From contig OZ001293.3 in the NCBI GenBank assembly GCA_963921275.4, positions 3,968,001-4,032,000 of the forward strand: a DNA stretch of 64,000 bases. The letters run 5' to 3'. Below the pieces are notes generated by a model, which was given only the letters and a program-made list of their open reading frames with translations, was not told where the DNA came from and did not search any database. How positions within the stretch are numbered: the first letter of the stretch is position 1; the number at the start of each line of letters is the position of its first letter. The DNA comes from an uncultured Hormoscilla sp. Lineage in GTDB: Bacteria; Cyanobacteriota; Cyanobacteriia; Cyanobacteriales; Desertifilaceae. The translations under genes and the position numbers were made by a program. Shown one piece after another: positions 35,292-53,163 of the stretch.

Positions 35292-36303
35292 ACCTAAGTT
35301 GCGACCTATTAAAAAAAATATGAATTACCCACTTAGACTTTACAGATATTTGGAATATTTCGTAGCTTTTGATACAAAATTATATTTTTTTTGTGCTACA
35401 CGGCGGGTTGGCTGTTTACAGGTTATAATGTACTAAAATAATAGTTAATTGCTGGGGGATGTAGATGATGGAAGATATGATTACAACAATTTTTGTTCTT
35501 TGTGACGAGCTACTAAAAGCGTTAAATATAAAAGAAGATCCACAAGTAAAAATGAACAATGCCGAAGTGATGACAGTCGGATTAGTTGCTGCATATTTTT
35601 TCGGAGGACACCACGATCGCTCTTGTCAATTTATGGTCCAACACAAGTATATAAAAAATCTGTTAAGTAAAAGTAGGTTCAATCGTCGATTACACAATAT
35701 TGAGGAACCAATTTGGATGTTTTTCTTCCAAGTTATAGCTCAAACATTTAAAGAGCTCAATCCGGGTCAAGAATATATTCTTGATAGTTTCCCGGTGCCA
35801 GTATGTGATAATATTAGGATTGATAGATGCCAAATTTATAACAAGGAAGAATATCGAGGGTATATTGCCAGTAAAAAACGTTATTTTTATGGATTAAGAG
35901 TTCATATGTTGGTAAACAAAAATGGAAAGCCAATAGAATTTTATCTAGATCCTGGTAGTTATAATGATTTTAAAGTTTTGCAATCTTTTGGCTTTGACTT
36001 ACCATCAAATTCAATAGTTTATGGAGATAAAGCTTATAATGATTATCAATTAGAGGATTTACTAAAAGAGTCGTCAAGTATAATGTTAAAACCTTTGCGA
36101 AAAAAGAACTCAAAAAGAAAAGAATATTCTTGTTTTGAATATATACAAAAAGTAACAAGAAAACAAGTTGAAACCTGTTTTAGTCGAATCACCAATTTGT
36201 TTCCCAAGTCAATTCATGCTGTTACATCTAAGGGATTAGAGTTGAAAATAATTCTCTTTATCATAGCTTTTTGTATCCAATTTTTATAGGTCGCAACTTG
36301 AGT
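35292..36303 (+). mobile_element. IS982-family insertion sequence, intact
   Basis: TIRs ACCTAAGTTGCGACCTAT / ATAGGTCGCAACTTGAGT, 6-bp target duplication TATCTA, low GC. Confidence 0.95.
35465..36289 (+). CDS. IS982 family transposase
   Basis: LSKSRFNRR, ILDSFPVPVC, YFYGLRVH, YGDKAY, RKQVETCFS. Confidence 0.93.
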   Translation: MMEDMITTIFVLCDELLKALNIKEDPQVKMNNAEVMTVGLVAAYFFGGHHDRSCQFMVQHKYIKNLLSKSRFNRRLHNIEEPIWMFFFQVIAQTFKELNPGQEYILDSFPVPVCDNIRIDRCQIYNKEEYRGYIASKKRYFYGLRVHMLVNKNGKPIEFYLDPGSYNDFKVLQSFGFDLPSNSIVYGDKAYNDYQLEDLLKESSSIMLKPLRKKNSKRKEYSCFEYIQKVTRKQVETCFSRITNLFPKSIHAVTSKGLELKIILFIIAFCIQFL

Positions 36304-36534
36304 TATCTATCTACATTATCTCTTGCACCCGGACCCTACAGGATGTGGCGATCCCCATTGGCACGATCTTCAACCTATAGCACATGTCTGATATCACCCC
36401 CACCGCCGCGATCGCCCCGGTCAAATCAGCTCAAGAATTTGCAAAATTGGACAATAGCTGCAAAAAACAGATCCAATTAAATATAATTGCCTATAGAATG
36501 TAAGATAGGTAGATATACAGAGATGAGAAGTAAT

Positions 36535-36813
36535 ATGGCTGGTGGCAGGAAAAAACCAGTGTCTCTCTCAGAAATAGAACTGCAAGTGCTCGAACTGGTG
36601 GCAGCGGGCTTGACAAATCAGAATGTTGCGGAAAAATTGGAAATCAGCAAACGGACTGTGGATAACCATGTCAGCAATATTTTGACGAAGACAGCGACGG
36701 GAAACCGGGTGGAGTTGGTGCGATGGGCAATGAAATGGGGTAAAGTATGCATTGATGAGGTAAATTGCTGTAGCATACAACCTCAATCAACTGATGAGGA
36801 GGTGGTAACATGA
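36535..36813 (+). CDS. pedR: Stand-alone LuxR-type HTH regulator (PedR-like)
   Basis: LSEIELQVLELVAAGLTNQ...ISKRTVDNHVSNILTK...WGKVCIDEVNCC. Confidence 0.78.
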   Translation: MAGGRKKPVSLSEIELQVLELVAAGLTNQNVAEKLEISKRTVDNHVSNILTKTATGNRVELVRWAMKWGKVCIDEVNCCSIQPQSTDEEVVT

Positions 36814-37112
36814 GTCAGGTGAGCAAACAGAGAATAGCGATTGCGCTGCGCGCACGCTACGCAAATGGCTGCCCTTCGATGCCATTGGCAGTATACCGGG
36901 AAGTAGCCGCTCACTTGCGACAAGTAAAAGGGGTGTATGCTGGCGAAATAGGGCAGCAGTCGAGAGAATTTGATTATAGCAACTCTCAAGTGGGGGGCTT
37001 GTTAATTGAGTATGCTCCTCAAGCTGACCGGAAGAGTAAGGTAGAATTGGAGCAAATTCTGGCATACTATAGCGATCGCTATGGTGCCTGGGAAGTAAGG
37101 CCAGCGGAATAA
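36810..37112 (+). CDS. Conserved cyanobacterial hypothetical protein
   Basis: PLAVYREVAAHLRQV...FDYSNSQVGGL; overlaps both neighbours, indicating an operon. Confidence 0.75.
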   Translation: MSQVSKQRIAIALRARYANGCPSMPLAVYREVAAHLRQVKGVYAGEIGQQSREFDYSNSQVGGLLIEYAPQADRKSKVELEQILAYYSDRYGAWEVRPAE

Positions 37113-38487: not shown

Positions 38488-39972
38488 ATGCCGCTAATAC
38501 CAGGTTACTTAATTGTGCTGACGATCGTCCTGGTGGTATTGCCATCAGTAGCGGCGATCTTCTTGCGTTTGGGTCTTTATGCTCATCTGGGAAGCCAAGG
38601 CAGACAGGTGAGAAGGCTACTGCACGGCCAGTCAAATGGAAAAAAACCAAGAATTATAGAATATCTGGAAAAAAGGTTTGCTGATGCAGTGGTCAAATTG
38701 GACCAGGTGAATACGGGGGCGTTGATAGATCAAGTATACAGCCGCGAGAAGGTAGGTTTTCTATCCTGCGAAAAAATTGAAAACATCTGCCGGATCCTGC
38801 CCAACTTACTGCTATCCTTCGGCTTGCTGGGGACTTTTATCGGGATCACGATTAATCTCTGGTCCCTAAGTGAAACGGTCAGTCAAACTCAGGCGATCGA
38901 TGTGGGGAGTTTGCTGCGAGAATTACAAACGCCGCTACAAGGAATGGGCATTGCTTTCACGACAAGCTTGGCGGCAATATTCTTCAGTGCGCTGTTAAGG
39001 ATAGTGAACATGCTGTTGAATACGATCCTAGCTAAGTACCGCCTGATCAGTGCTGTAGAGGATTATCTAGATAATGTCTATCTGCCGACATTAGAGGGTG
39101 AAACGAGGCTGGATAAAATAGTTAAGGGGATGACAACATCATTTGATGGCTTCTTAATGAGATTTGGTCAAGCGGTGCGGGAGGCGGTGCAATCTTCTCT
39201 GCAAGACAAGCTGCAAGAAATTTTTGATGCCAATAGAAAAGCGAGTCAGTTGGCGGAACTGGTCTACGCGAGATTGGCCCAAAGTTCGGGCACGATCGCT
39301 AAAAGTGCCGATGAATTTCAAAGGGCGGCAGACCGGTTTATAGAAGTGGCTCAAACCTTGGAGAACAGCCAGTTTCCCCGGAAGTTAGCAAGTGTAACAT
39401 CGGACTTGGCGAGCACGCAAAGGAATTTTTCCCAGTCGGCGTCGGTGTTGGTGGAATCAGTGCAAGTGATTGAAACGGCAGTGGCGGAAATGCATAGTTA
39501 TAGTAAAAACTTGGCTAAGCTGGGAGAACAAATTAACAGTAGCAATCAAATGTCAGGACAACTGCTAGAGTCCCATCAAAGGAATCAGCAATCTTTTGGT
39601 GAGATGATTCCGGAACTTCAGGAAGGAACTCGTGGCTTCCAGTCGGCGGTGAAAGCATTTGAAAGGCTACAAAAACAGGCGAGCGCGCGAGAAGAGACGG
39701 TTTCGGAGGTGCAAGCAGAACTGACGAAGTTGGTGGAGAATCTGAATAACTATACAGAGGGTGTAAATAGAGGCATTCAGAATTTGGGCGAACGGTTTGC
39801 CGAAAGCCTGAGTAACCAAACCTACAATAACGATGCCCAGTTTAAGTTGGTGGTGAAAAATCTGCAACAATCTATCAATTATCTGAATGAAGCGAAACAT
39901 GAAATGACGCGGATGCGGCAGGTGCTAGAAAAGCAGAAAGGGGGTGAGATAGCAGATAAGGTAAACCAGTGA
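38488..39972 (+). CDS. MotA/TolQ/ExbB-type channel protein with long coiled-coil tail (ZorA-like)
   Basis: N-terminal TM; LPNLLLSFGLLGTFIGI and LQGMGIAFTTSL TM motifs; about 300-aa helical tail. Confidence 0.8.
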   Translation: MPLIPGYLIVLTIVLVVLPSVAAIFLRLGLYAHLGSQGRQVRRLLHGQSNGKKPRIIEYLEKRFADAVVKLDQVNTGALIDQVYSREKVGFLSCEKIENICRILPNLLLSFGLLGTFIGITINLWSLSETVSQTQAIDVGSLLRELQTPLQGMGIAFTTSLAAIFFSALLRIVNMLLNTILAKYRLISAVEDYLDNVYLPTLEGETRLDKIVKGMTTSFDGFLMRFGQAVREAVQSSLQDKLQEIFDANRKASQLAELVYARLAQSSGTIAKSADEFQRAADRFIEVAQTLENSQFPRKLASVTSDLASTQRNFSQSASVLVESVQVIETAVAEMHSYSKNLAKLGEQINSSNQMSGQLLESHQRNQQSFGEMIPELQEGTRGFQSAVKAFERLQKQASAREETVSEVQAELTKLVENLNNYTEGVNRGIQNLGERFAESLSNQTYNNDAQFKLVVKNLQQSINYLNEAKHEMTRMRQVLEKQKGGEIADKVNQ

Positions 39973-40008
39973 GGATGGTAGAAGTAGCGTCATAAGGGGT
40001 TGTGGAAT

Positions 40009-40836
40009 ATGCGTCGTCGATCGCAAGTGATAGAATCGTCGGAGGAGCTAAACATATGGCCAGCGTTCACAGACTTGATGTCTAACGCCTTCATGATTCT
40101 GAGTCTGCTATTGCTGCTGGCCCTAGTGAAATCGGTGTTCTTGAAGTCAGTCTCGGAGGCGACGGCAAGTCGTTCGAGAGAGTTAGAGGAACAGATTGTC
40201 AAGTTAGAGGAGGAGTTGCGACAACGGTCAAATATAATTACGGGACTAGAGGAGGAGGTAACGGGACTAGAGGGAACGGTTGCCAGTTTACAGAATGACT
40301 TGGGGAAAAAGACAACTATAATTACAGAACTAGAGGGGGATGTGGAACGGTTAAAATCGCCGCCCGTAATCGTGATTAGAGATTCCAAGGAACGGAAATT
40401 TGAATCGGGGAGTGCAGAATTATCTTCAGGGTTAGTTAGCTTTATCAAGCAGGATTTGGTCAAGCAAATTGAATCTGAGGCCAAGAACTATCAAGGCTAT
40501 GTGGTCGAGGTGATTGGTCATACGGATGGTCAGGTGAATCAAGGGCGATCGAGCAATCTGGATCTAATCTTAGAAAAGGTAGCTACGGGCAGTCAACCGG
40601 TAAGCAATCTCAGACCGGGTTCTAATGCGGATTTGGGTTTGATGCGGGCCTTGGCAGTGGTGCAGGAACTTCAGAAAGATGAGCGTTTAAAGAAAATGGG
40701 GTTAAAGTTTCGGGCTTATTCGGCGGCACAATTGTACCTGCCCCAGAATAAAGGCTACTCCCCAACGAATCGGAATCCAGATCAAAGCAGGCGCAGGATT
40801 GAAATTCGCTTCTCTCCAGCAGCTGTGGAAAGGTAA
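40009..40836 (+). CDS. MotB/OmpA-like peptidoglycan-binding protein (ZorB-like)
   Basis: WPAFTDLMS TM with the conserved Asp; FESGSAEL, VIGHTDG, NADLGLMRALAV, RRRIEIRF. Confidence 0.85.
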   Translation: MRRRSQVIESSEELNIWPAFTDLMSNAFMILSLLLLLALVKSVFLKSVSEATASRSRELEEQIVKLEEELRQRSNIITGLEEEVTGLEGTVASLQNDLGKKTTIITELEGDVERLKSPPVIVIRDSKERKFESGSAELSSGLVSFIKQDLVKQIESEAKNYQGYVVEVIGHTDGQVNQGRSSNLDLILEKVATGSQPVSNLRPGSNADLGLMRALAVVQELQKDERLKKMGLKFRAYSAAQLYLPQNKGYSPTNRNPDQSRRRIEIRFSPAAVER

Positions 40837-40971
40837 AGCGCAGCGTGTAGGGCAGGCGGATCGCCTGCCCGAGATAGACGTGGGGCCAATACCTCTCGGT
40901 TAAACCAGGACGTGAGATCGGAATTTTGTGAATATAGAATAGGTGAAAATAGTTGTTGAAGAGGCTGTTAG

Positions 40972-43182
40972 ATGGATAGAGCCGCACGCATTGCTAGCAT
41001 AATTGATACGCGCCGCCCCCTGGCTCAGAAAATTGAAGCCGTGGAAGGGAATCTTAACGAGCTGGCCTCATTACTTCGCCAGCTCGAAGATCAGCAAAAT
41101 CGGCTGAGGGCACAGTTGGATGAGGAAAATGCCGCTGAACGCCTCAAGGAAATCGATTTTTCCACTATTGGGCTGAGTATTGTCACTGAGTTGTCAGCCC
41201 TCAGTAAGTTCTGCGCTCGCTTCTCCCGTCAAAATCTTAATCTGGGAGTAGTGGGGATAGCTCGCCAAGGAAAGAGTCGCCTGCTGCGGAGCTTAACCGG
41301 ACTCTCAGCAGGGGAGATTCCTGATGGTGACAAAGGACATTGCACTGGGGTTCGCAGTACAATCTACCAGATGCCCAGCAGTGGTACCTTCGGTATGGTC
41401 GGGTTCTATACAGAGCAATCATTTCTGGATGAGATGATCGCCCCGTATTATGAGAAGCTGAGTTTGGGGGAAAAGCCTCGGACCGTCGAACATTTCGCTC
41501 AACAGCTTCCTCCCCTGCCCAGCAACCTTGCCAGCAACCCTACTTACCAAGCGATGTATGACTACCTGGGCAAGTATCACCAGAATCTGCCCAAGTATCG
41601 CCACCTGCTGGGGGCGACATCGCCCATGAGGATTTCACAAAATCAAATTCGAGAATATGTTGCTCAGGATAACCTGACAGGCGATCGGATCTATTTCAAC
41701 TATCTGGCAGTCCAAAAAGTCAGCATATTTTGCACCTTCCCCAACTCAGATGTCGGCAAGATTGCCTTGGTGGATATGCCGGGTTTGGGGGATACAGGGG
41801 TGGGTGCAGAAGAAAGGCTGATAGAACTTCTGGGGCAAGATGTGGATGTTGTTCTGTTTGTCCGGATGCCGAAGCCCGCTGGAGATGACTGGTTGAAATA
41901 CGATATCGACCTGTACGGAACCGCTAAGAATGCTCTGAAAGACCGTCTGACAATAGACAAGTGGTCTTTCATGATTCTCAATCGCATAGATCCTAGCTCG
42001 GGTAAGGGAGACAATTATCAACAATGCCAATTCTTGGAGGGTAGACTGGCTCAAACACCTATTAAAGTTGTTGAACCTGTAATCATTGCTAACTGCGCCG
42101 ACCCGCAAGAGGCAAACGCAAAGATTCTCGATCGGGTGCTCGACTACCTGGCGACTAACATTGAGGCTTTGGACAAGGAATACGCATCGTCCTGCAAGCA
42201 GGAACTACTGCAACTTCACAATCAGATTACTGTAGAGTTAGACAAAGCGGGTAATGCCTGGAGTCAAATGAGGGCAACTGCCAGTGGTTCGGTAGCAGAA
42301 TTTCGTAGGCTATTCAATCCCTTTTGGGAAGAGATCGCCCTAGAGTTGCTCAACCTGCTTAATGCTTTAAGGAAGGAGAGTGACACCAAAATAGATACGA
42401 TTGTTGCAGAAAAGGTCAATTCTGCGATCCAAGATTGTAAAGACGATCCAGGAATTCCGTCGATTGAAGAGATTGAAAATATGAGGCGGAAGAATAAGGG
42501 ACAAGCAGCTTATGAAAACGTCTTCAACATATACTTGAATCAGATGCGCACCCACCTGTCAAAGAAATTTGCATCAATAGATAGTGGGCTAAAGCAATTG
42601 ATAGAGCAAACAAAATCTCGGGTTACAGAGGTACTGGTTGAAAATGGGCGTCTGGGAGAAATAACAGAAAAACGCGGGTCTGAGTTTATCAACTTCATGG
42701 CAGAGAAAGTGCCGGATGACCAACAGAGATTAAAAAGTGGGTTTCAAATATTATCGAAATTTGACCTTTCATATAGTGTTCTGATTCAGCACCGGATTCG
42801 GCGAGAACTTGATGAGATCACGCCTGACAAAAAAACCCTTAAGCTTGAAAAGGATCCCACGGCAGAGGAAGTCCTAGAGAAGCTTAAGATACTGCATGCA
42901 GAAGTTGTTTATAAATGCGAGCAAGTATTGCAAGGGTTACTCTGGGAGCCGAGTCTAGCTGCCTTTGCCATGGTGGAAGAGTTTGTAGATCAGGTACTTC
43001 TTTCGGAAGATGTAAATGAAGAATGGCAAGACTTTCTAGAGCAGGAGAAAGAAAAGGTATGGCCTGAAAAATACAATCCACATAACGAGCGCAATCAGCT
43101 CCGAACCGAGTGGCTAAACTTAGTGGAAAGAGCCAAGAGTGCTAAGCAAAAATTATTAGAATCAATTCAATTTATGAACTAA
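40972..43182 (+). CDS. Dynamin-like large GTPase
   Basis: G1 GIARQGKS, G2 CTG, G3 DMPG, G4 NRID; N-terminal coiled coil and long helical C-terminal stalk. Confidence 0.75.
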   Translation: MDRAARIASIIDTRRPLAQKIEAVEGNLNELASLLRQLEDQQNRLRAQLDEENAAERLKEIDFSTIGLSIVTELSALSKFCARFSRQNLNLGVVGIARQGKSRLLRSLTGLSAGEIPDGDKGHCTGVRSTIYQMPSSGTFGMVGFYTEQSFLDEMIAPYYEKLSLGEKPRTVEHFAQQLPPLPSNLASNPTYQAMYDYLGKYHQNLPKYRHLLGATSPMRISQNQIREYVAQDNLTGDRIYFNYLAVQKVSIFCTFPNSDVGKIALVDMPGLGDTGVGAEERLIELLGQDVDVVLFVRMPKPAGDDWLKYDIDLYGTAKNALKDRLTIDKWSFMILNRIDPSSGKGDNYQQCQFLEGRLAQTPIKVVEPVIIANCADPQEANAKILDRVLDYLATNIEALDKEYASSCKQELLQLHNQITVELDKAGNAWSQMRATASGSVAEFRRLFNPFWEEIALELLNLLNALRKESDTKIDTIVAEKVNSAIQDCKDDPGIPSIEEIENMRRKNKGQAAYENVFNIYLNQMRTHLSKKFASIDSGLKQLIEQTKSRVTEVLVENGRLGEITEKRGSEFINFMAEKVPDDQQRLKSGFQILSKFDLSYSVLIQHRIRRELDEITPDKKTLKLEKDPTAEEVLEKLKILHAEVVYKCEQVLQGLLWEPSLAAFAMVEEFVDQVLLSEDVNEEWQDFLEQEKEKVWPEKYNPHNERNQLRTEWLNLVERAKSAKQKLLESIQFMN

Positions 43183-43196
43183 CCAAAGCTGAGGAG

Positions 43197-44186
43197 TTGT
43201 TGATGCCAGAACCAGAACTAAAAATAACCATGCTTGGCCCAAGCGGTGTCGGCAAGACCAGTCTCTTGACAGTTATGTACGATCGGTTTGAGACCACCAT
43301 TGATGAGACCAACCTTAGCCTCGATCCCGATATGGAAACTTTAGGCATCCTTCAAAACTGCCTTGGAGACCTGAAAAGCCTTGTCAGGCAGGGGAATTTT
43401 CAGGCAACAGGAGGTATTCGCGGTACAGAAGAACCAAGAACATTCAAATTTGGTATTGGTAAGCCCGGTCACGATCCAGCTTTTCAACTTTGCTTTCAAG
43501 ATTACCCAGGGGGATGGATCGAGTCTAATCCTCAGAAAAAAGAGTCTGTTCTAGCTTTTATCAAGGAATCTGATGCAGTCGTAATTACGATCGATGCTCC
43601 GGGCCTGATGGAGCCTTATCAACCTTACGAACAAGATAAGTGGAAAAGTAGATGGCATGAGAAAATTAATAAACCCTTAACAATCACAACCTTGTTGAAG
43701 AATGCCTACAGAGGACTAGAGCAGCCCAAGCTAGTGATATTCGCTCTAGTGAGGTGTGAAAAATACATCATGGAAGGAAATTCAGCCGCACTATTGAATC
43801 GCGTCCAGCAGGGATATAAGACATTATTAGTGTTTTTGGGAGCTGAAGCTCTGCGTCAGAATGTAGCTGTAGTAGTTACGCCCGTTCAAACTGTGGGGAG
43901 TGTGATTTTCTCTCGTGTGGAGGTTAGGGATGGTCAGCCTTTTTTCTGGTTTCGCCAAACCGCAAATCCTCAATACAATCCCATCGATAGCGAACAGCCA
44001 CTTCGATACATTTTACGATTTGTGTTAAAAAAATACACGGAGCGCAAGGGATTCTGGGCGTGGCTAGGAAGACTGTTTCGTAAAGATACGCCATTTAAAC
44101 AGGCGGTTGCTGAGATGGCAAAGGGTTGCAAAAATGGTGACGGGTTTGTAGTTCTACAGGGTCAAAACTTACTAAACATTAGATAG
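43197..44186 (+). CDS. Small TRAFAC-class P-loop GTPase
   Basis: G1 GPSGVGKT, G2 GT, G3 DYPG, degenerate G4 (RCE); amphipathic C-terminal GFWAWLGRLF. Confidence 0.78.
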   Translation: MLMPEPELKITMLGPSGVGKTSLLTVMYDRFETTIDETNLSLDPDMETLGILQNCLGDLKSLVRQGNFQATGGIRGTEEPRTFKFGIGKPGHDPAFQLCFQDYPGGWIESNPQKKESVLAFIKESDAVVITIDAPGLMEPYQPYEQDKWKSRWHEKINKPLTITTLLKNAYRGLEQPKLVIFALVRCEKYIMEGNSAALLNRVQQGYKTLLVFLGAEALRQNVAVVVTPVQTVGSVIFSRVEVRDGQPFFWFRQTANPQYNPIDSEQPLRYILRFVLKKYTERKGFWAWLGRLFRKDTPFKQAVAEMAKGCKNGDGFVVLQGQNLLNIR

Positions 44187-44199
44187 CAAGGAGTTAACT

Positions 44200-44946
44200 A
44201 TGAAGATTTACGTTCGCAGTCGCGGGGAATCTCAGGACTACTGCTGGTTGAGCATTACTGAGGAAGGTCAACAACGGGAAGAACATCCCCTAATTGGTCA
44301 AGTGAAGGATTTAATCCAGAGTGAAGCTCATTCAGTGGTTCTAGCAAGGTTTATGGGTAAATTACTGTTGCTGGTTACTGGTGAAGAAAGTTCGCGCACC
44401 GATTCTCGCACTCGTCAGATCCGTAATTCGGTAGCATGGGTGGGAGAAAACTCTGATGAGTCTGTGCTGCGGATGCTGGCAGTACGTGCGTTACGAGGGG
44501 ACTTGAGAGCAGAACTTGACCGCGCCGTGACCTTTGGCGGTGAGGAGGGGTTTCAGGTTTCTTTGCCAGATATTGAGCAATTAGCTTTGACGGACAAACT
44601 AGCAAACTCGCGTCCAGACAGGACGAAGAAGATCGGACGTACTTCACAAGAGTTGAGAGACGAACTAGCGGAGGAACTGGAGAAATACAGGTTGCCGTCA
44701 TCAGAGGGACCGCTGGTGGTTGTCACGGGAATTAAGAAGGCAGAAGTTCTGGAAAATGCTGGAGTTTGGCGAGGTCTATCCAGTTTAGTGGAGGCAGAGG
44801 ATTGGGAAACAATACCGGAGACTGAGACTGAGGCTTTGTCTGGCTACTTGAAGAATCCTCAAAAACTCATCCTATACTTGTTGATGGCTAGTGGCCTGTA
44901 TTTTATATTGTCTGAACTACTGTCTTTTATGCAGAAGCTACAATAA
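44200..44946 (+). CDS. GTPase-associated hypothetical protein with C-terminal TM, paralogue 1
   Basis: Strong RBS AAGGAG; about 205-aa globular domain shared with 45103-46443; C-terminal hydrophobic helix. Confidence 0.75.
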   Translation: MKIYVRSRGESQDYCWLSITEEGQQREEHPLIGQVKDLIQSEAHSVVLARFMGKLLLLVTGEESSRTDSRTRQIRNSVAWVGENSDESVLRMLAVRALRGDLRAELDRAVTFGGEEGFQVSLPDIEQLALTDKLANSRPDRTKKIGRTSQELRDELAEELEKYRLPSSEGPLVVVTGIKKAEVLENAGVWRGLSSLVEAEDWETIPETETEALSGYLKNPQKLILYLLMASGLYFILSELLSFMQKLQ

Positions 44947-45102
44947 CGCCAATGGTCTATAGAATAACCGCTTCTAGAGCTAAAACAATCATAGACGATC
45001 GCCCAAAAGCGGTTGGTGAGTTTGTTTTCTGGGAACATTATGACTTCTAGCAAGTTCAAAAAGTATATCAATCCTTAATGATTAGATAGGAAGGAGTTAA
45101 CT

Positions 45103-46443
45103 ATGAAGATTTACGTTCGCAGTCGCGGAGAATCTCAGGACTACTGCTGGTTGAGCATCACTGAGGGCGGTCAACAACGGGAAGAGCATCCTATGATCGG
45201 TCAAGTGAGGGATTTAATCCAGAGTGAAGTTCCCTCAGTGGTTCTGGCAAGGTTTAATGGTCAATTGCTGTTGCTGGTTACTGGTGAAGAAAGTTCGCGC
45301 ACGGATTTTCGCACCCGTCAGATCCGTAATTCGGTAGCATGGGTGGGTCAAGAATCTGACGAGTCTGTGCTGCGCGCGATCGCGGTGCGTGCCTTAAAGG
45401 GTTCGTTGAGAGAAGAAATTGACCGGGCTGTGAGGTTTGGCGGTTCCGAAGGGTTTCAGGTTTCTTATAAGGATATTAAGCGATTGGCTGAAACAGGTCA
45501 CGCGGGAAATGCAATTCCCGATACAACTCCAAAAATAGCACTGATTTCGCCAACGATGAAAAATCTGTTAGCTGATGAACTCGCTGAATATCGCTTGCCT
45601 CCACATCCAGAAGAAGGATCCCTAGTGGTTGTCACGGGAATTAAGAATAGAGAAACTCTTGAAGCTGCTGGAGTCTGGCGGAGTCTATCAAGTGACGAGA
45701 GGCTTCCAGAGGACTGGGAAGTGATACGCCATTCCAGGTTTCTGAAGTTAAGCAGTTTAATGGATATTGCCAAGCAGGAGAGCTTCAAAAAAATATGTAT
45801 TGGTATTGGTGTATTGGTTTTGATTGTGGGATGGCAATTTGATAACATCAATTCACTATTTTACAAATTTTTATCCAATTCAAATGTTCCCGATACTCCA
45901 ACTCCTGCGCCGACTCCAACTCCTGCGCCGACTCCAACTCCTGCGCCGACTCCAACTCCTGCGCCGACTCCAATCCCTACACTTGATGATATTGGAACGG
46001 TAGATGGCAAAAATAATGATGGCGATATAGCTAAAATAACAATTAGCGAAGATTCAGGAAAAATAAAAGTAATTTTTGAATTAGGGAAAAATACTTCGGC
46101 TTTTGATGAGAATGATTATAAAAATACACGAGACAATCTGATAAATGCGACAGAAGCAGCTAGCAAAAAAGTGGCCGAAGAAATCAGGAAGAGAAATAAT
46201 AAAATTAAACTTCCTATTCAAGGACGTTCCGATCGGAAAGAAGTCCCCGGATTTAAAGCAAATAAATGTGGCGATCTAGTCGAAATAAACTTAGACTTAG
46301 AACCTAAAGTGTTTTTTAATATCGCGCCTCCAAGTGACGCCTGTCCCAGTAGTCAGCCAGAAGATATTAAAGAAAGTTTTGAGAATGCCACGGCGAATGC
46401 CATCAAAGATATTGTGAATCAAATAAAGAAGCAAAAACAATAG
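45103..46443 (+). CDS. GTPase-associated hypothetical protein, paralogue 2: shared N-domain, TM, (PTPAPT)n linker, AT-rich C-terminal domain
   Basis: Same RBS/start context and near-identical N-terminus as 44200; 18-bp repeats at about 45895-45975. Confidence 0.75.
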   Translation: MKIYVRSRGESQDYCWLSITEGGQQREEHPMIGQVRDLIQSEVPSVVLARFNGQLLLLVTGEESSRTDFRTRQIRNSVAWVGQESDESVLRAIAVRALKGSLREEIDRAVRFGGSEGFQVSYKDIKRLAETGHAGNAIPDTTPKIALISPTMKNLLADELAEYRLPPHPEEGSLVVVTGIKNRETLEAAGVWRSLSSDERLPEDWEVIRHSRFLKLSSLMDIAKQESFKKICIGIGVLVLIVGWQFDNINSLFYKFLSNSNVPDTPTPAPTPTPAPTPTPAPTPTPAPTPIPTLDDIGTVDGKNNDGDIAKITISEDSGKIKVIFELGKNTSAFDENDYKNTRDNLINATEAASKKVAEEIRKRNNKIKLPIQGRSDRKEVPGFKANKCGDLVEINLDLEPKVFFNIAPPSDACPSSQPEDIKESFENATANAIKDIVNQIKKQKQ

Positions 46444-46809
46444 TAATTGCCAGTAGCGGGTGTGGTCACGGGCTGAAATAAGGCTAAACGAATTGCGATC
46501 GCAGTATGGAATACTTTTACTAAAATCATCGAGCCTTGGCGTTGTGAGGTGTCGGGAGAACCGGTGACGGAGTTCTATTTAGGGGATAAGGATGCTAAAA
46601 TTATTTCACCTAATTGCTGGGATAATAAGTAAGACTATTTGTCAAAAAGCCCGCGTTCACAACTCCTTCACTTCGCTGTCAGCCCGCCGGGGGTTCAAAC
46701 CCCCGGCTAATAGCTAAAGTCGGTTAAAACCGACTAAAAACATTGTCTGTTAAGCTTTCAGTCTATGTTTTGTAAACTTTTTATTAGCCTATGGTCTGCG
46801 ATCGTTCTC

Positions 46810-47090
46810 AGCCAGAGACTGCCCACGAGAAAAAAGGCAGTTTACCTAGTTCCCAGGGTCTCCCTGGGAACGATCCTAGAGGCTGAGCCTCGGGTGCCAG
46901 AAGCTGGAGGCAGAGCCTCCCAAGGTTCGTTCCCAGCCAGAGACTGCCCACGAGAAAAACAATAAAAAAGGCAGTTTACCTAGTTCCCAGGGTCTCCCAA
47001 CGCTCCTAGAGGCTGAGCCTCGGGTGCCAGAAGCTGGAGGCAGAGCCTCCCAAGGTTCGTTCCCAGCCAGAGACTGCCCACGAGAAAAAA
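46810..47090. repeat. Tandem duplication of a ~130-bp REP-like element
   Basis: GTTCCCAGGGTCTCC...GAGGCTGAGCCTC...GAGGCAGAGCCTC...GTTCCCAGCCAGAGACTGCCCACGAG occurs twice; relative at 53025-53145. Confidence 0.85.
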
Positions 47091-47119: not shown

Positions 47120-47443
47120 ATGAGAAAAGTAGAAATCACCGAAGCTGAGGCTCCTTGGGCAGAGTATGTACAAGATAGAGAGCCGATTGTTTTAATCCGT
47201 GATGGTCAGCCGGTTGCGGCATTGGTTCCCATCGAAGGCATCGATTTGGAGACGCTTATGGTGAGGCGGTTAAAGCCGTTGGGGTTAAAATTTCGAGCCT
47301 ATTCCGCTGCACAATTGTACTGTCCCTCTTCCACTGCACCATCGTACTGTCCCTCAGGAAGCTACGCTCCCATGAATCGTAATCCCGATCAAAGCAGGCG
47401 CAGGATAGAGATTCGCTTCGTTCCCCCCGCCTCAGAAAAATAG
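47120..47443 (+). pseudogene. Chimera of a Phd/YefM-like antitoxin N-terminus and the C-terminal end of a second ZorB/MotB-like gene
   Basis: EPIVLIRDGQPVAALVPI followed by GLKFRAYSAAQLY...NRNPDQSRRRIEIRF, nearly identical to the end of 40009-40836. Confidence 0.72.
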
Positions 47444-47787
47444 GAGCATCTGTGAATTAAGAAACCCGGTTTTTTGGAAAAACCGGGTTTCTGGGATACT
47501 GGCGAATATAGCAGTTCTCAGATTAGTGTGATATGCTGTCGGAGATTGCTTCGGGGGGGGGGATAAATCATAAAGCATAAGCTGCTCGCCTTACTCCCCC
47601 CCTCGCAATGACAAGTTGGTGATTGTTCTGTACCACATCAATTTGAGAAACTCTATATGTCCGCAGCCAAAATATGGTATTAGTCGGTTGAAAACCGACT
47701 TTAGCCTCGTTCCCTGGCTCCCGCCAACGCGGGGGTTTGAATCCCCGGCGGGCCATGAAACTAATTTTAATATCGGAGGTTTAGATC

Positions 47788-49434
47788 GTGTCTGACTGGT
47801 GGAAGCTGTTCCCGCCCTACCTGCTAGTTTTGACTGTACTGTTGGTAATCCTACTCACTATAGCTGCTATCTGCCTGCGCATCTCCCTTTACAGTCATCT
47901 GATCTTCCTAGAGTCTCGGGTACTGAGACTGATAAATGACTCCAGTCGGGGGATGCAACCGCAAATTGTGGAAAACCTAGAGCAAAGATTTCGGCAAGCT
48001 AGTAGTAACCTCGAACAGGTGAATACATTGGCTCTGATTTCGGGGATATATAGCAAAGAAAAATTTAAGTTTTTGGGCTTTTCCTGGCCCTGCGTGCAGT
48101 GGAATGAATTTTGCCGCTACTTGCCGAATTTGTTGGTCGCCTTGGGACTGCTAGGCACATTTTTGGGCATCACTTTCAACCTTTTTAATCTGAGTCTGAC
48201 CATTACTCAACTTCAGAGAAATAATGTCACGGACGTGGCTGTATTATTCCAGAAATTACAGTCTTCTCTCCAAGGCATGGGCATTGCTTTTATTACCAGT
48301 TTACTGGCCGTAGCTTGCAGTGCCTTGTTGACAGTGGTAAACTTGCGCTGGAATACCCGTTTAGCCAAGTCTCAACTGATTCTCTCTTTAGAAAATTATC
48401 TGGACAACGTGTTACAACCAACCATTGAGGGTCACGGCAGACTGGATAAAGCTGTTAACCGCATAGTAGAGCAGCAGCATGAGTTTTTGACTAGATTTCA
48501 CGATAATGTTACGGCAGCAATGGAGAGATCCTTGGGCAAGGTGGCAGAACAAATTGCTGCTGGTAATAGAGAAGCTACTGAACTGGCTACTCGAGTATAC
48601 GATCGCTTTAGCAGAGCTGCTGGTACGATCGCTAATGCTGCGGATGAGTTCGATCGGGCGGTGGCGGCCATGGAGGCCACTACAGGGGAATTTGCCCGGG
48701 TGGCTCAAATCTTCGAGCAGAGTCAGTTTGCTCAGAAGTTATCAACTGCGACAATGGGTTTGGCCAAAACCCAAGCAAAGTTCGATCGCTCTACTGTAAG
48801 TTTAGCAGAAACAGTGAAATCCATTGAAAGGACGGGGAAGATAATAGGGAGTGCGAGTCAGCAGTTAGTGAAATTGCTCGGAGAAATTAGCAGTGCCAAT
48901 CAAACTACCGTGCAAGTCTTAGAGTTGCATCAGCAGAATCAGCAGTCTCTAAGTAATATTATTCCTGAATTGCAGCAAACTGTGGAGCGTTTTCAGTCAG
49001 GAATTACAATTATTAACAAAATGCAGTCCCAAATTGTGAATAAAGCTGATAGTATGGAAGGGGTGAAGGTAGAGCTTTTAAACTTGGTGACGACGATGAA
49101 TCGCTATACAGACCAGATCAATCTGGCAATTCAGTATTTGGGTCAGCGCCTGACTAATAATGTCGCGGCAGGTACCAGCAACCAGCAACTGCAAGCCGTG
49201 ACCGCCCAGGTAGATCGGGGGATTCATTATTTGGGCGATCGCCTATTAGCCATGGGGAAGGAAACCAATAGCAGCAACCAGCAATTATTGAAACAGTTGG
49301 AGGCATGTGTCCGGCATCTGGTGGAGGCGAAACAGGAAATATACTGGCTGCGGGAAACCCTAGAACAGCCGGTTAACTTTAAGGATGACGCGAATTTTAT
49401 CAACAAGCTGAGAGCCCAATTGGACAGAAAGTAA
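47788..49434 (+). CDS. Second MotA/ExbB-type channel protein with long coiled-coil tail (ZorA-like paralogue)
   Basis: LPNLLVALGLLGTFLGI, LQGMGIAFITSL, LENYLDN...RLDK; colinear with 38488-39972. Confidence 0.8.
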   Translation: MSDWWKLFPPYLLVLTVLLVILLTIAAICLRISLYSHLIFLESRVLRLINDSSRGMQPQIVENLEQRFRQASSNLEQVNTLALISGIYSKEKFKFLGFSWPCVQWNEFCRYLPNLLVALGLLGTFLGITFNLFNLSLTITQLQRNNVTDVAVLFQKLQSSLQGMGIAFITSLLAVACSALLTVVNLRWNTRLAKSQLILSLENYLDNVLQPTIEGHGRLDKAVNRIVEQQHEFLTRFHDNVTAAMERSLGKVAEQIAAGNREATELATRVYDRFSRAAGTIANAADEFDRAVAAMEATTGEFARVAQIFEQSQFAQKLSTATMGLAKTQAKFDRSTVSLAETVKSIERTGKIIGSASQQLVKLLGEISSANQTTVQVLELHQQNQQSLSNIIPELQQTVERFQSGITIINKMQSQIVNKADSMEGVKVELLNLVTTMNRYTDQINLAIQYLGQRLTNNVAAGTSNQQLQAVTAQVDRGIHYLGDRLLAMGKETNSSNQQLLKQLEACVRHLVEAKQEIYWLRETLEQPVNFKDDANFINKLRAQLDRK

Positions 49435-49700
49435 ACAATAATTTTCGGGTATAATGGTACTGAATTAAGTAAAAAAAACTCTAATTTGTCATTGCGAGGG
49501 GGGCTCAGAGGGTTTAACTTGTGTTATATATGAGTTAACCTCGGCGATCGCCACAAGGTCGGTTTGGACTTCCCCCACGCTGCGCGAAAAATCGCAATGA
49601 CAGCTTAAGTCAGTGCCATTCATTGTAAAATAGAATGAACGAGCCCCTTGACAATTGCTAGATCTTCTGGCAGAGTAAGAGCAGGCGATGGGATGGAGCA

Positions 49701-51620
49701 ATGGAAGACTGGGAATTTCTGATCCAAAAAGAGGGCCTGAGGACATGGTTGCCCCTAAAACCCCCGATCGCGCAACTAAAGTCGGGTCGCTATCGAGTAG
49801 TGGCGCGATCGAACCGTATCAATACGGAAGTGGAAGTGCGTCTGACTTATCAGTCACAAGTGCAGCGGTTGCAAAAATGGATTCGTCATACTAACGAGAA
49901 AGGTTCGATGCCAGTGTTTCCCTACATCCACCTGCAACCGGGTCTGTGGGAAATTAGCTGTTCTGGTAACCTGATGTCTGAACTGGTAGGAGATAGCTGG
50001 AAGCATACAGTGCAGTTGCAAGTTTTGCCTGTAAAATCAGAGGTCGAACAAGAGGACGAACATCCCGGAATAGATCTAGAAGATAGCGGTAATGTGGAAG
50101 CTTGGCCTGTCAACTCGGAGTCGGAAGTTGACCAACCGGAAGTTGAACCGCCAGATGAAGATCTGATACCAGAGTTAGTAGAAGCATCGGTAGCAGTCCC
50201 GATCGGGCTATCACTTGACCAACGAACTTACATAGCGTTTCCAGGTGAGTCGATCGCCCTTGTGGGACAAGTGGATCTGGCTTCAGAAAACGATCGAACA
50301 TCTGAGTCGCAAATAGAACAAAGAGTCAATACTTACGAATTACTTATTCTTCTGCGCGACCCAGAGAACTCCCAGACCATCAAGGAAATTCGTCAATTAT
50401 TGTCCTTTGAGATCCTGCCGGGACTTTTTGAATATTCCTTTGACCTGCCCCGAGAGTGCCAAACTCGCGTAATTTTGGGAGAACTGCAACTGTTTGATGT
50501 GACATCAGGTTCGTCAATGGTAACTCTTGAGTTTACGATCGCACTGGTGGTGCATGAGTCGATCGAGACGATCTCCCAGCAGGGGAACTCTGTGGGAACT
50601 ATTTTTCCCGAACAGTTGGCCTTAGGTAAAATTAAATCAAAAGCAGACTCCCGGAAGTCCCAACCGCAGGTCAAACCTTCAGTTAATCTCTCTTTCTTTA
50701 ACTTGGCGAAGGATCCTCCACAGCAAGAACATCATCAGAGCAATTTTCAACCCGCACCCTACAGCCCCATACCCGATCGCATTTACCAACCAGACCTGGA
50801 AAAGTCAACCCGCAAGTCTCCCCAACTTCCCCCGATCGGAAATAAGTCCGATCGCCCGCAGGTAGAGTCGGAAGCCAAAGATGCCAACCATGACGATCGG
50901 CAACCGAAAAAACCTCTCAGTTTGCCCCCCATCAAAAAGCCTGATCGCCCAATAGTATCTAGTATGGAGTCGGAAGTAGTGGCTGAAGCACAAGAGGGCG
51001 ATCGCTCAGTTTTGTCACCCAGAGAATTTCTGGGATTAAAATTTCAAGATCGTTTTTCCGAAAGGCTGAAAATCTTGGCTGAAGATCCCGAACCCTTAGA
51101 AATACTGGATCCCAACCCATTGGCCGACTCTTCAGAAGGGGAAGAAAGTAATGAGTCCGAGGATAAATTAGTAGCTGACGAAAGGTTTGTCTATGAAGAA
51201 ATGAGAGGCGATCGGGAGGAATTAGTTGCTCCTACTCAGGGGGTGATCGAGCTTTACGATCGGCCACCAGTGCCTAAACCTGAGTTGCAGGTGCCAGAGG
51301 GTGAATTAGTAGCTGGAGAGTCCATCATCATATTGGTAAAACTGCCTAATTTATTATCCCGCCTTTATGTTAAATTCTGGGTATTAGATCCGCAAACCCG
51401 CACCCTCTTAGAACCGCCGCACTGGTTGACTAAATTTCAGCCTCACCTCTATCAGGACGGGATGGAAACTAATACAGAGTTGACAGTACCTTTTGGCTGC
51501 ATGGAAATTCAAATAGAGGCGATCTCTGTTGAGGTGGCCACCGAACAGGAAAGCCACCAAGTGACAGTTAACCGCATGGTAGTACCGCCTAATTTACCGG
51601 ATTTGAGAATTGAAAATTGA
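49701..51620 (+). CDS. Conserved cyanobacterial hypothetical protein
   Basis: 639-aa ORF with MEDWEFLIQKEG..WLPL N-terminus and acidic/proline-rich middle. Confidence 0.65.
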   Translation: MEDWEFLIQKEGLRTWLPLKPPIAQLKSGRYRVVARSNRINTEVEVRLTYQSQVQRLQKWIRHTNEKGSMPVFPYIHLQPGLWEISCSGNLMSELVGDSWKHTVQLQVLPVKSEVEQEDEHPGIDLEDSGNVEAWPVNSESEVDQPEVEPPDEDLIPELVEASVAVPIGLSLDQRTYIAFPGESIALVGQVDLASENDRTSESQIEQRVNTYELLILLRDPENSQTIKEIRQLLSFEILPGLFEYSFDLPRECQTRVILGELQLFDVTSGSSMVTLEFTIALVVHESIETISQQGNSVGTIFPEQLALGKIKSKADSRKSQPQVKPSVNLSFFNLAKDPPQQEHHQSNFQPAPYSPIPDRIYQPDLEKSTRKSPQLPPIGNKSDRPQVESEAKDANHDDRQPKKPLSLPPIKKPDRPIVSSMESEVVAEAQEGDRSVLSPREFLGLKFQDRFSERLKILAEDPEPLEILDPNPLADSSEGEESNESEDKLVADERFVYEEMRGDREELVAPTQGVIELYDRPPVPKPELQVPEGELVAGESIIILVKLPNLLSRLYVKFWVLDPQTRTLLEPPHWLTKFQPHLYQDGMETNTELTVPFGCMEIQIEAISVEVATEQESHQVTVNRMVVPPNLPDLRIEN

Positions 51621-52719: not shown

Positions 52720-53163
52720 ATCGCATGTAGTGAGCGATCGCCCACCACAATACTTCTCGGTTAATAACAATAACGTATCATTGCAAGGGGGGGGGAGCCC
52801 AAACCAACATCTTCCGGGAGTGTCGCCAGGATCCCCCCCGAAGCAATCTCATACCTTATAGGGGAGGGGGAGATTGCTTCGGGGGGGTTAATTCAATTGA
52901 GCATAAATTAATCGCTACATACCCCCCTCGCAATGACAAATGTCAGCCGTCGTGCTTAACCGAAAAGTATTGTCGCCGACCAGACTGCCGGAGCGATCGC
53001 GCTTTTGCCAAGCAAACCAAAAACCTCGTTCCCTGACTCCGGCAGGGAACGAAATTTAGAGGCTCTGCCTCCTGGGAAGACGCGAGGCAGAGCCTCTGGG
53101 CAACGTTGCTAGCTGGAAACTAGCAACGAGGGGAAACGAGGGGAAATGCTTCGCCCCGAAGTC

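Follow-up and report, generated by a model that had tools for sequence, protein, structure and literature searches.

Three adjacent genes at positions 40972 to 44946 of the 64,000-nucleotide (nt) stretch analysed here (the window; contig OZ001293.3 of GenBank assembly GCA_963921275.4, an uncultured Hormoscilla sp., positions 3,968,001 to 4,032,000 of the forward strand) encode a large GTPase, a small GTPase and a membrane protein. They form a self-contained, co-inherited unit whose arrangement recurs far beyond chance. By sequence comparison the large GTPase belongs to the dynamin superfamily and the small GTPase to the DO-GTPase2 family of Pfam, and the product of the third gene (g3) is predicted to be tail-anchored, with its bulk in the cytoplasm. 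To the reading that the trio acts as one GTPase module at the cytoplasmic face of the membrane, with a role in conflict or membrane stress, we give a probability of about 0.5. We infer that it is a dynamin-containing variant of the DO-GTPase/GAP1 conflict systems, the GTPase-centric systems predicted by computer in Kaur, Burroughs, Iyer and Aravind (2020, eLife 9:e52696, PMC7159879; Pfam PF19975, PF19993 and PF20012-14). A preliminary description of this DNA, made from its letters alone, had already singled out the three genes.

Conservation and layout of the trio

In a collection of 185,579 species, 205 relatives of the small GTPase were confirmed, and 80 loci were kept. The large GTPase lay upstream in 74 of these loci, g3 lay downstream in 78, and both were present in 72; among the loci with sufficient flank, both partners were found in 62/67. 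The triad had been proposed from the letters as a self-contained module, and its recurrence in the same order at 72/80 loci bears this out. By title, 78/80 records were cyanobacterial, mostly from filamentous or colony-forming genera. The other two came from Binatia and Chloroflexaceae, and in both the large gene was frameshifted or broken by a stop codon.

A second survey started from the large GTPase and sampled 301 genomes of the phylum in 134 genera. Relatives were obtained from 27 genomes (23 genera), and none from the large picocyanobacteria-type families sampled. Among the 20 best of the 29 places found (tblastn, E ≤ 1e-4; the remainder being eight weaker matches and the window's own), the full trio stood in order at 15/20, the two GTPases only at 1/20, and the large GTPase alone at 4/20. 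Conservation of the family is good, with ~45-55% identity among many cyanobacterial genera, and a word-indexed search returned 669 matches, mostly cyanobacterial and ~50% identical. For g3, a profile search of 1.84 billion representatives gave 603 cluster representatives at E ≤ 0.001.

The large GTPase was also found in 10 records of a plasmid collection, 8 of them cyanobacterial plasmids. On plasmid 3 of Nostoc carneum, all three trio genes are annotated as hypothetical proteins. A full ordered trio is carried by Nonomuraea gerenzanensis as well (L177:108-10095; identities of 36%, 37% and 26%), in a record filed as a plasmid but of 11.85 Mb and presumably the chromosome. There, the small GTPase scores 44.3 bits against DO-GTPase2, and a gene for a 1101-residue TPR-CHAT (caspase-like) protein lies upstream of the trio.

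At 58 loci, the pairwise distances within the three protein families were correlated with one another (r = 0.82, 0.81 and 0.73), and 0/999 permutations were as high. Because the genes of one genome share a history, this is evidence of co-inheritance only, not of co-evolution. The possibility that the window's copies are decaying was considered and rejected, because among the columns with 90% conservation or more they deviate at 9/181, 2/66 and 0/34 positions, a range that other members show as well.

The host genome is cyanobacterial and measures 7.03 Mb. All three genes lie on the + strand: the large GTPase gene at 40972-43182 (bigG, 736 residues), the small GTPase gene at 43203-44186 (smallG, 327 residues) and g3 at 44200-44946 (248 residues). 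The stop codon of the first ends at 43182, and a GAGGAG at 43191-43196 abuts a TTG at 43197. Because this ribosome-binding site touches the TTG and sits 6 nt 5' of the ATG at 43203, the ATG is almost certainly the true start, which yields 327 residues instead of the 329 read from the TTG and makes the first gap 20 nt instead of the ~14 nt given in the preliminary description. Homologues of the small GTPase start M-x-E-L-K-I-T-M-L-G. The second spacing stands as first described, with clear ribosome-binding sites: the small GTPase gene ends at 44186, an AAGGAG occupies 44188-44193, 6 nt before the g3 ATG, and the gap is 13 nt. The GC content of the region is unremarkable, no Rfam family or tRNA gene was found near the locus, and promoter-like and terminator-like sites were in no excess over shuffled sequence.

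The two GTPases and the tail-anchored protein

The motifs by which the two proteins were first recognised as different P-loop GTPases are all present, namely GIARQGKS, DMPG and NRID in the large one and GPSGVGKT and DYPG in the small one. The large GTPase appears soluble. Its G domain spans about residues 85-400, preceded by a helical segment at the N-terminus and followed by a C-terminal half that is helical as well; hydropathy detected no transmembrane or paddle segment in the protein. The window's protein scores 17.6 bits against Pfam Dynamin_N, under the 27-bit cut-off. The profile is matched by 54/55 relatives at E ≤ 0.01 (best 6.6e-10), several of them at or over the cut-off (29.2, 27.7, 27.0, 28.1, 39.7 and 29.2 bits). 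An hhalign comparison of the family with a bona fide Dynamin_N protein encoded beside one family member aligned 260 columns across the G domain (E 5.9e-4). In a protein atlas its neighbours, at 0.99, were 'Dynamin family' clusters of Planctomycetota, Actinomycetota and Cyanobacteriota; a SLIP-GC-like cluster from chordates stood at 0.95. Searches of solved structures gave P-loop or coiled-coil noise only, both for the single sequence (vimentin, E 0.07) and for the family profile (IniA 0.18, IRGB10 0.16, Drp1 0.38). On these sequence comparisons we assign the protein to the dynamin superfamily with a G domain homologous to Dynamin_N, in agreement with its earlier designation as dynamin-like.

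Among 55 sequences the invariant residues include G95, Q99, G100, K101, S102, C124, T125, D268, P270, G271 and N337. The G1 P-loop, a switch-I Cys-Thr pair (Thr125) and the G3 motif D268-x-x-G271, within D-x-P-G-L-G-D, are thus invariant, and a long insert separates switch I from G3. The reading of NRID as G4 holds in part: N337 is invariant, but D340 is found in the window and a few other sequences only, the family motif being L-N-[RQ]-T.

The small GTPase scores 24.5 bits against DO-GTPase2 (PF19993; cut-off 27) and also weakly matches MMR_HSR1. DO-GTPase2 was matched by 48/49 of its relatives at E ≤ 0.01 (best 1.6e-12), and DO-GTPase1 as well by 15/49, so that the profile check proposed in the preliminary description came out positive. 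Relatives score 28-44 bits, in the range of a canonical DO-GTPase that adjoins a true GAP1 (31.9 bits), and public databases label many of them PF19993, 'Double-GTPase 2 domain-containing'. We therefore place the protein, by its profile matches, in the DO-GTPase2 family; it is the sole match to that profile in the genome. Searches of solved structures reached the P-loop level only, with Rab6 at E ~0.1 for the single sequence and YPT6/Rab6 at E 4e-4 over ~30 residues for the profile.

Invariant positions of the small GTPase are G17, K18, D100, G103, N156, C185, E186, P227, T230, G232, Q265, P266 and L267. Its G4 had been called aberrant, and the family agrees: the G4-like motif is [AP]-V-[KR]-C-E, with C185 and E186 invariant in 49/49. 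The Walker B motif reads F-x-D-[YF]-P-G, followed by Gly in 22/49 sequences (Gly104 in the window) and by Glu in 20/49. A conserved Walker B glutamate is attributed to DO-GTPases in the text of Kaur et al. (PMC7159879), which we interpret here as D-x-x-G-E; the canonical DO-GTPase beside a true GAP1 in another genome has FDTAGE as Walker B and SKID as G4. Hydropathy gave no transmembrane segment. An amphipathic C-terminal helix had also been noted, of which a moderate helical hydrophobic moment was recovered for KGFWAWLGRLFRKD (rank 13 of 314 windows), but at residues 282-295, short of the extreme C-terminus. In a sub-family of trios (L041, L043, L044, L046 and L176), the small GTPase is ~424 residues long, with a charged, coiled-coil-like insert of ~100 residues before the conserved C-terminal end, and its Walker B is F-T-D-P-[ST]-G-E.

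Compared with hhalign, the two GTPase families share 24 P-loop columns only (probability 5%). Because they have the P-loop alone in common, the two are not paralogues. This bears on the idea that the trio is a cyanobacterial counterpart of Eleos (LeoA/LeoBC), in which the membrane would be protected, or lysis delayed, by a pair of dynamin-type GTPases acting together. The trio has two adjacent GTPase genes, one of the dynamin family; conflict-type fusions and neighbours occur at trio loci (below); and a two-gene anti-phage system with dynamin-like domains has been reported (preprint 10.1101/2022.12.12.520048). Against this, the small GTPase is a DO-GTPase2 protein whose likeness to the large one ends at the P-loop, nothing in Eleos corresponds to the trio's obligatory tail-anchored third gene, and neither the trio proteins nor their relatives matched a PADLOC model, although the presence of LeoA/LeoBC models in the PADLOC copy used is unverified. 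We consider the Eleos interpretation improbable.

Bacterial dynamin-like proteins (BDLPs) attach to membranes and draw them into tubules, and phage protection is known for DynA and Eleos. With these proteins (BDLP of Nostoc punctiforme, DynA and LeoA) and with Eleos, the large GTPase shares the dynamin-type G domain, the long insert between switch I and G3, the helical half and the operon pairing with a second GTPase. It differs from them in scoring only around the Dynamin_N cut-off, in the loss of the G4 Asp in most members, in having no transmembrane or paddle segment by hydropathy, and in its non-dynamin partner GTPase. A closer likeness by description is the 'HSR1 clade' of cyanobacterial dynamin-like genes, each followed by a gene for a poorly characterised small GTP-binding protein that was proposed to be regulatory (Jilly et al. 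2018, Front Plant Sci 9:206, PMC5827413). Its six listed genes are known by locus tags, and the comparison is one of descriptions only. In the available text of that paper there is no mention of a tail-anchored third gene or of a conflict role. The large GTPase had no match in the Anabaena sp. 90 plasmid that holds one listed HSR1-clade gene, a weak negative from a single plasmid search.

The third gene had been described as a membrane partner, and hydropathy supports this. The g3 protein comprises a domain of ~200 residues (~195 in the family alignment), a linker and one transmembrane helix at residues 223-243 of 248. Because this is the sole predicted helix and lies at the end, the protein is predicted to be tail-anchored with its bulk in the cytoplasm. 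No model of Pfam, NCBIfam or PADLOC matched it, and its 58 relatives likewise had none beyond coiled-coil noise in their tails. W16, L57, R72 and W190 are invariant. The tails that follow the helix vary within the family, from none to coiled coils and Pro/Thr-rich or Pro-rich segments.

An AlphaFold2 model of g3, built from the family alignment, reached a mean predicted local distance difference test score (pLDDT) of 94.2 and consists of a single alpha/beta domain, a short linker and the transmembrane helix. The model was compared by VIA-align with 48,161 representative chains, and a second look was taken at the top 1000 of Foldseek. The best match was FNIP2 of the folliculin complex (6nzd_H; Z 5.3, root-mean-square deviation 4.5, 124 aligned residues), followed by a Lokiarchaeal roadblock-longin protein (8yqg_B, Z 5.0), DENND10 (4.6), GATOR1 (4.5) and TagF (4.4), within an overall range of Z 3.5-5.3. 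Ykt6, VAMP7, Lst4, the SEA complex, TRAPP, MON1/CCZ1, Fuzzy-Inturned and Sec22b were also among the matches. In the second look, the top 24 rows were all longin-type GTPase regulators or platforms, or TagF. The likeness covers residues 1-135, and we take it as a hint that the modelled cytoplasmic fold is longin-like.

A 2013 account by Levine and colleagues is said to treat longin and roadblock domains as GTPase platforms. With such platforms (FLCN-FNIP, Nprl2/3 of GATOR1, DENN, MglB and Ragulator) and with TagF of the type VI secretion system, g3 would share the predicted fold of residues 1-135, a coupling to a small GTPase and the occurrence of tandem or paralogous forms. It differs in being tail-anchored and bacterial and in having no sequence similarity to them, and a Z of 3.5-5.3 is too low to establish homology; a GTPase-activating or guanine-nucleotide-exchange activity is a candidate.

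Tandem and paralogous forms were found at two places. One relative of g3, P0362 (515 residues), contains two tandem g3 domains and lacks a transmembrane helix. In the window, a paralogue, g3b, lies downstream of g3 (45103-46443, + strand, 446 residues), identified by a direct repeat that includes the ribosome-binding site (44173-44472 and 45076-45375, 90% identical) and by 69% protein identity to g3 over 220 residues. It has a g3-type N-terminal domain, a transmembrane helix at residues 228-249, a linker of Pro/Thr repeats and, outside, a domain of ~150 residues of no assigned family. The gene contains tandem units of 18 nt (45877-45984), and g3b is also present in the near relatives L096 and L097. 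The tandem protein and the two paralogues of the window would fit a dimeric g3 platform, and the outside tails of the family, like the outside domain of g3b, could sense envelope events.

The profile check of the preliminary description failed for GAP1-N, and the notion that g3 is a GAP1 by sequence was rejected: 0/58 relatives matched any GAP1 Pfam model at E ≤ 1. An hhalign comparison of the g3 family with one true GAP1 (GAP1-N2, 132 bits) gave a probability of 0.1%, for this single template. In the genome there was no match to PF20013, and none to PF20012, for which the control genomes gave none either; among 201 genomes of the phylum, PF20013 detected one GAP1 only. The modelled g3 has one domain where GAP1 has three (N, M and C). 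What g3 does share with GAP1 is its place directly downstream of a DO-GTPase (13 nt), its C-terminal transmembrane helix and its variable outside parts. Among the atlas feature neighbours of g3 were entries with GAP1-N2 at 0.87, 0.78 and 0.76, which serve as a lead only.

The resemblance to double-GTPase systems with a GTPase-associated protein, which had been suggested from the letters together with a dynamin-like partner, is therefore confirmed in some parts and corrected in others: the small GTPase is of the DO-GTPase2 family and the large one of the dynamin superfamily, but g3 is no GAP1 by sequence and the GTPases are no paralogues. In the text of Kaur et al. (PMC7159879), a second paralogous DO-GTPase is present in 38% of systems and N-terminal zinc ribbons in 60%, and the GAP1-N2 systems lie mainly outside cyanobacteria. 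According to that description, the trio shares with these computer-predicted systems a DO-GTPase2 small GTPase, a downstream partner ending in a transmembrane helix (frequent in GAP1-N2), a preference for filamentous or multicellular hosts, and variable HEPN, AAA_35/STAND-like and CHAT accessories. It differs in that its second GTPase is a 736-residue dynamin-family protein and not a paralogous DO-GTPase. Zinc ribbons are missing too, and the small GTPase can have none because its P-loop begins after 8 residues. Its third protein is a single-domain one without a GAP1-N, GAP1-M or GAP1-C match, and FNIII, GASH and tubulin components are absent. The trio belongs neither to GAP1, nor to Zorya, nor to the classical double-GTPase pairing. 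We infer a DO-GTPase/GAP1-type switch in which a dynamin replaces the second GTPase and a minimal longin-like anchor replaces GAP1. The word 'dynamin' is absent from the main text of Kaur et al. (PMC7159879), and the later papers found that mention the DO-GTPase family do so in passing. No description of the trio was found in the literature on DO-GTPase1/2, on Zorya with dynamin or on cyanobacterial dynamin-like proteins, a search that covered the text of a limited set of articles.

Neighbouring genes and the ZorAB-like pair

The genes flanking the trio were different at every locus checked, with toxin-antitoxin, restriction, Uma2, nSTAND and transposase genes scattered among them. In L103, L113 and L121 the two GTPase genes are separated by a small AAA_33 gene. 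A gene for a ~635-residue AAA_35 protein follows g3 in L045, L169 and L172, and 635-residue open reading frames (ORFs), matched by size only, hold the same position in L165 and L174. The large GTPase is itself fused at its N-terminus to AAA_35 and HEPN_Swt1 in one locus (L045:7986-11888, - strand, 1300 residues) and to AAA_35 alone in another (L169:1105-3999, + strand, 964 residues); a database relative, P0022, combines HEPN_Swt1 with the Dynamin_N large GTPase in 920 residues. The HEPN, AAA_35 and CHAT partners are of kinds known from conflict systems. Further AAA_35 genes flank the fusion loci L045 and L169.

Solo large GTPases were seen in other settings. At L030:4548-10199 one of them (54% identical) comes right after genes for a contractile-injection-system tube, a VgrG-like spike and PAAR, and may be a cargo or accessory of that injection machine. 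In L049, a solo copy lies among vWA, PP2C and Ser/Thr-kinase-TPR genes.

Upstream of the trio, on the same strand, are genes for a ZorA-like protein (38488-39972, 494 residues) and a ZorB-like protein (40000-40836, 278 residues), a membrane pair that we judge to lie outside the unit. They match PADLOC ZorA1 (2e-12) and ZorB1 (2.5e-6) and fall far under the cut-offs of the NCBIfam ZorA subfamilies. ZorA and ZorB adjoined the trio at 1/80 small-GTPase loci (a near-identical relative) and 0/20 large-GTPase loci. ZorA-like relatives were found in 47/301 genomes; the 15 loci fetched had a ZorB-like gene in 15/15 and the trio in 0/15, and in the 14 sampled genomes with both a large GTPase and a ZorA-like gene, the two were on separate contigs or hundreds of kb apart.

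The junction between the two blocks (40837-40971) also varies among close relatives. In the window the ZorAB block ends between 40852 and 40911, and the trio block starts at ~40946, about 26 nt before its first ATG; a promoter-like site at 40912-40940 falls in the junction, though such sites are equally frequent in shuffled sequence. In the near-identical L096 (L096:2218-7003), homology to the window runs up to 40911, is interrupted by a 4-kb insert and starts again at 40946; the insert has genes for a ParE toxin, an 82-residue ORF, a 565-residue SNF2-family helicase and a 346-residue unassigned protein. L097 has an intact trio from 40946 with different sequence upstream, contigs of relatives in two public runs (X1 and X6) diverge from the window at 40852, 40871 and 40946, and the synteny of L080 with the window, which begins before ZorAB and includes it, gives way to unrelated genes after ZorB. 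Since the junction differs among close relatives, and the adjacency was found only here and in one near-identical relative, the position of the trio behind the ZorAB-like genes is probably incidental, an island-like insertion; this supports the suggestion of the preliminary description that the module may have been slotted in behind zorAB. In L096, moreover, a 1526-bp deletion costs the large GTPase its residues 263-736 and the small GTPase its residues 1-27, fusing the 5' third of the large gene to the small gene.

These data decide largely against a new Zorya-type system, in which the ZorAB-like proton channel would sense the envelope and the trio would supply the effectors in place of ZorC/D, ZorE or ZorF/G. 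Such a system is suggested by the shared strand, by the 135 nt between the ZorB-like and large GTPase genes with no terminator-like site on the + strand between them, and by the PADLOC matches of the pair. The window's ZorAB pair also lacks the tubulin-type partners present in 14/15 other cyanobacterial loci, and FtsZl1 operons with OmpA-family proteins and divergent GTPases are known from the text of PMC2875224. In view of the counts of 1/80, 0/20 and 0/15, the 14 genomes that keep the two at distant places, the unrelated genes after ZorB in L080, and the ParE/SNF2 insert or different sequence at the junction of close relatives, we regard a functional tie between ZorAB and the trio as very improbable.

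In the 14 cyanobacterial loci with such partners (14/15; L081-L094, e.g. L083:1529-8336), a 380-residue gene of no known kind, a ~1080-residue gene, the ZorA-like gene and the ZorB-like gene form, in that order, a four-gene array. In the one example scanned, the ~1080-residue gene matched Tubulin_2 (FtsZl1-type, E 5e-111). No Tubulin_2-type partner gene was found in the window's genome. Operons of FtsZl1 that combine OmpA-family proteins and divergent GTPases are described in Makarova and Koonin (2010, PMC2875224), and the cyanobacterial arrays match that description; instead of classical Zorya, the cyanobacterial 'ZorAB' may represent the stator in a system of tubulin type.

The window has a second ZorA-like gene at 47788-49434 (548 residues, 44% identical to the first) with no intact ZorB alongside. 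An 84%-identical copy of the 3' end of ZorB lies upstream of it, within an ORF (47120-47443) whose N-terminus has a weak likeness to Phd antitoxin, and a 639-residue protein of no family is encoded at 49701-51620, a homologue of which follows ZorAB in L087. Between g3b and the ZorB fragment, at 46800-47090, are three tandem units of ~130 bp (91-99% identical), copies of which also occur at the junctions in L096 and L097. Short inverted repeats of the 'CCCCCCTCGCAATGACAA' type at 47597-47627, 49473-49523 and 52902-52941 bracket the second ZorA-like gene. The tandem units and inverted repeats resemble miniature repeat elements and would mark a region that has been rearranged. Upstream of hisS, the interval 35465-37112 holds a DDE transposase gene (35465-36289), a LuxR/GerE-type regulator gene (36487-36813) and a 100-residue ORF that is conserved next to ZorA in L080, where hisS is missing from that position.

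Proposed role of the trio

In the module that we favour, the tail anchor of g3 would fix the assembly on the membrane. The longin-like domain of g3 would set the nucleotide state of the small GTPase, in the manner of longin/roadblock platforms acting on Rag, Rab, Arf and MglA GTPases, with the invariant Arg72 as a candidate catalytic finger. The GTP-bound small GTPase would license the dynamin-like protein for assembly on the membrane, either recruiting or releasing it, and the dynamin-like protein would then remodel, seal or deliberately disrupt the membrane.

A module of this kind might instead serve the cell in peace, by shaping, fusing or repairing thylakoid or cytoplasmic membranes or septal structures of filamentous cyanobacteria, with no part in conflict. 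The identity of ~45-55% across many cyanobacterial genera, the mostly housekeeping flanks and the lack of a PADLOC match would suit such a function. Membrane-dynamics roles for cyanobacterial dynamin-like proteins are argued for in the text of Jilly et al. 2018 (PMC5827413), and the PSP survey (PMC11237479), as far as its text goes, predicts the DO-GTPase family in membrane-related stress. A housekeeping module is harder to reconcile with a presence in only 27/301 genomes of the phylum and in none of the sampled picocyanobacteria-type families, with a genomic position that is different at every locus, and with copies on plasmids. In the near-identical L096 a deletion truncates both GTPase genes, and frameshifts interrupt the large gene in two genomes from outside the cyanobacteria. 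The HEPN RNase and AAA_35 NTPase fusions and the CHAT protease neighbour also count against it. Because the distribution is patchy, plasmid-borne and easily lost, and because of the HEPN, AAA_35 and CHAT associations, we lean towards a role in conflict or damage response, and hold a pure housekeeping function to be possible but rather unlikely.

Several results weigh against the membrane-bound conflict or stress module. PADLOC contained no defence model matching the three trio proteins (E ≤ 0.01) or the proteins of nine relatives (E ≤ 0.001), and most of the immediate neighbours are housekeeping genes (rhomboid, urease, ThiC, RuvB and ribosomal protein S15). The dynamin assignment of the large GTPase is drawn from its G domain, a dynamin-type stalk or paddle in the helical half would be putative, and guanine specificity is not assured because the G4 Asp is unconserved in the family. 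The small GTPase of the window has Gly104 in place of the Glu after DxxG described for DO-GTPases by Kaur et al. For g3, there is no sequence relation to GAP1; the best Foldseek match of the model, TagF, is nonsignificant (E 0.014), and the longin likeness is weak (Z ≤ 5.3, against the 7-8 typical of unmatched models). The sequence in which the three proteins would act is pure conjecture. Among RNA libraries, one run only held a part of the stretch, the ZorAB portion of a relative in assembled contigs, which is uninformative on transcription of the trio.

A bolder extension is that a small GTPase, a longin-type regulator and a dynamin form a cascade with the three-part logic of eukaryotic membrane traffic. 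The membrane-anchored longin-like protein would switch a Ras-like GTPase, and this would bring in a dynamin to cut, seal or sacrifice membrane; multicellular bacteria would use the cascade for immunity or in response to damage, with possible shared ancestry with eukaryotic longin regulators and with SLIP-GC/dynamin-type immune GTPases. We offer this as a tentative suggestion and think it unlikely.

For annotation, the trio is to be separated from the neighbouring ZorAB-like genes, and a tubulin-type operon is the usual setting of the ZorAB-like pair in cyanobacteria. If the module described here is real, a widespread trio of 'hypothetical' genes would join two separately studied bacterial GTPase worlds, the dynamin-like remodellers and the predicted DO-GTPase switches. 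The trio is small and tractable, its three genes encoding one tail-anchored and two soluble proteins. Its study could reveal the means by which bacterial dynamins, nearly all of them unexplained in this respect, are recruited and regulated, and could open the DO-GTPase systems to experiment for the first time. If bacteria are confirmed to place a longin-type regulator and its small GTPase upstream of a dynamin, this would also bear on how eukaryotic trafficking, and immune GTPases, arose.

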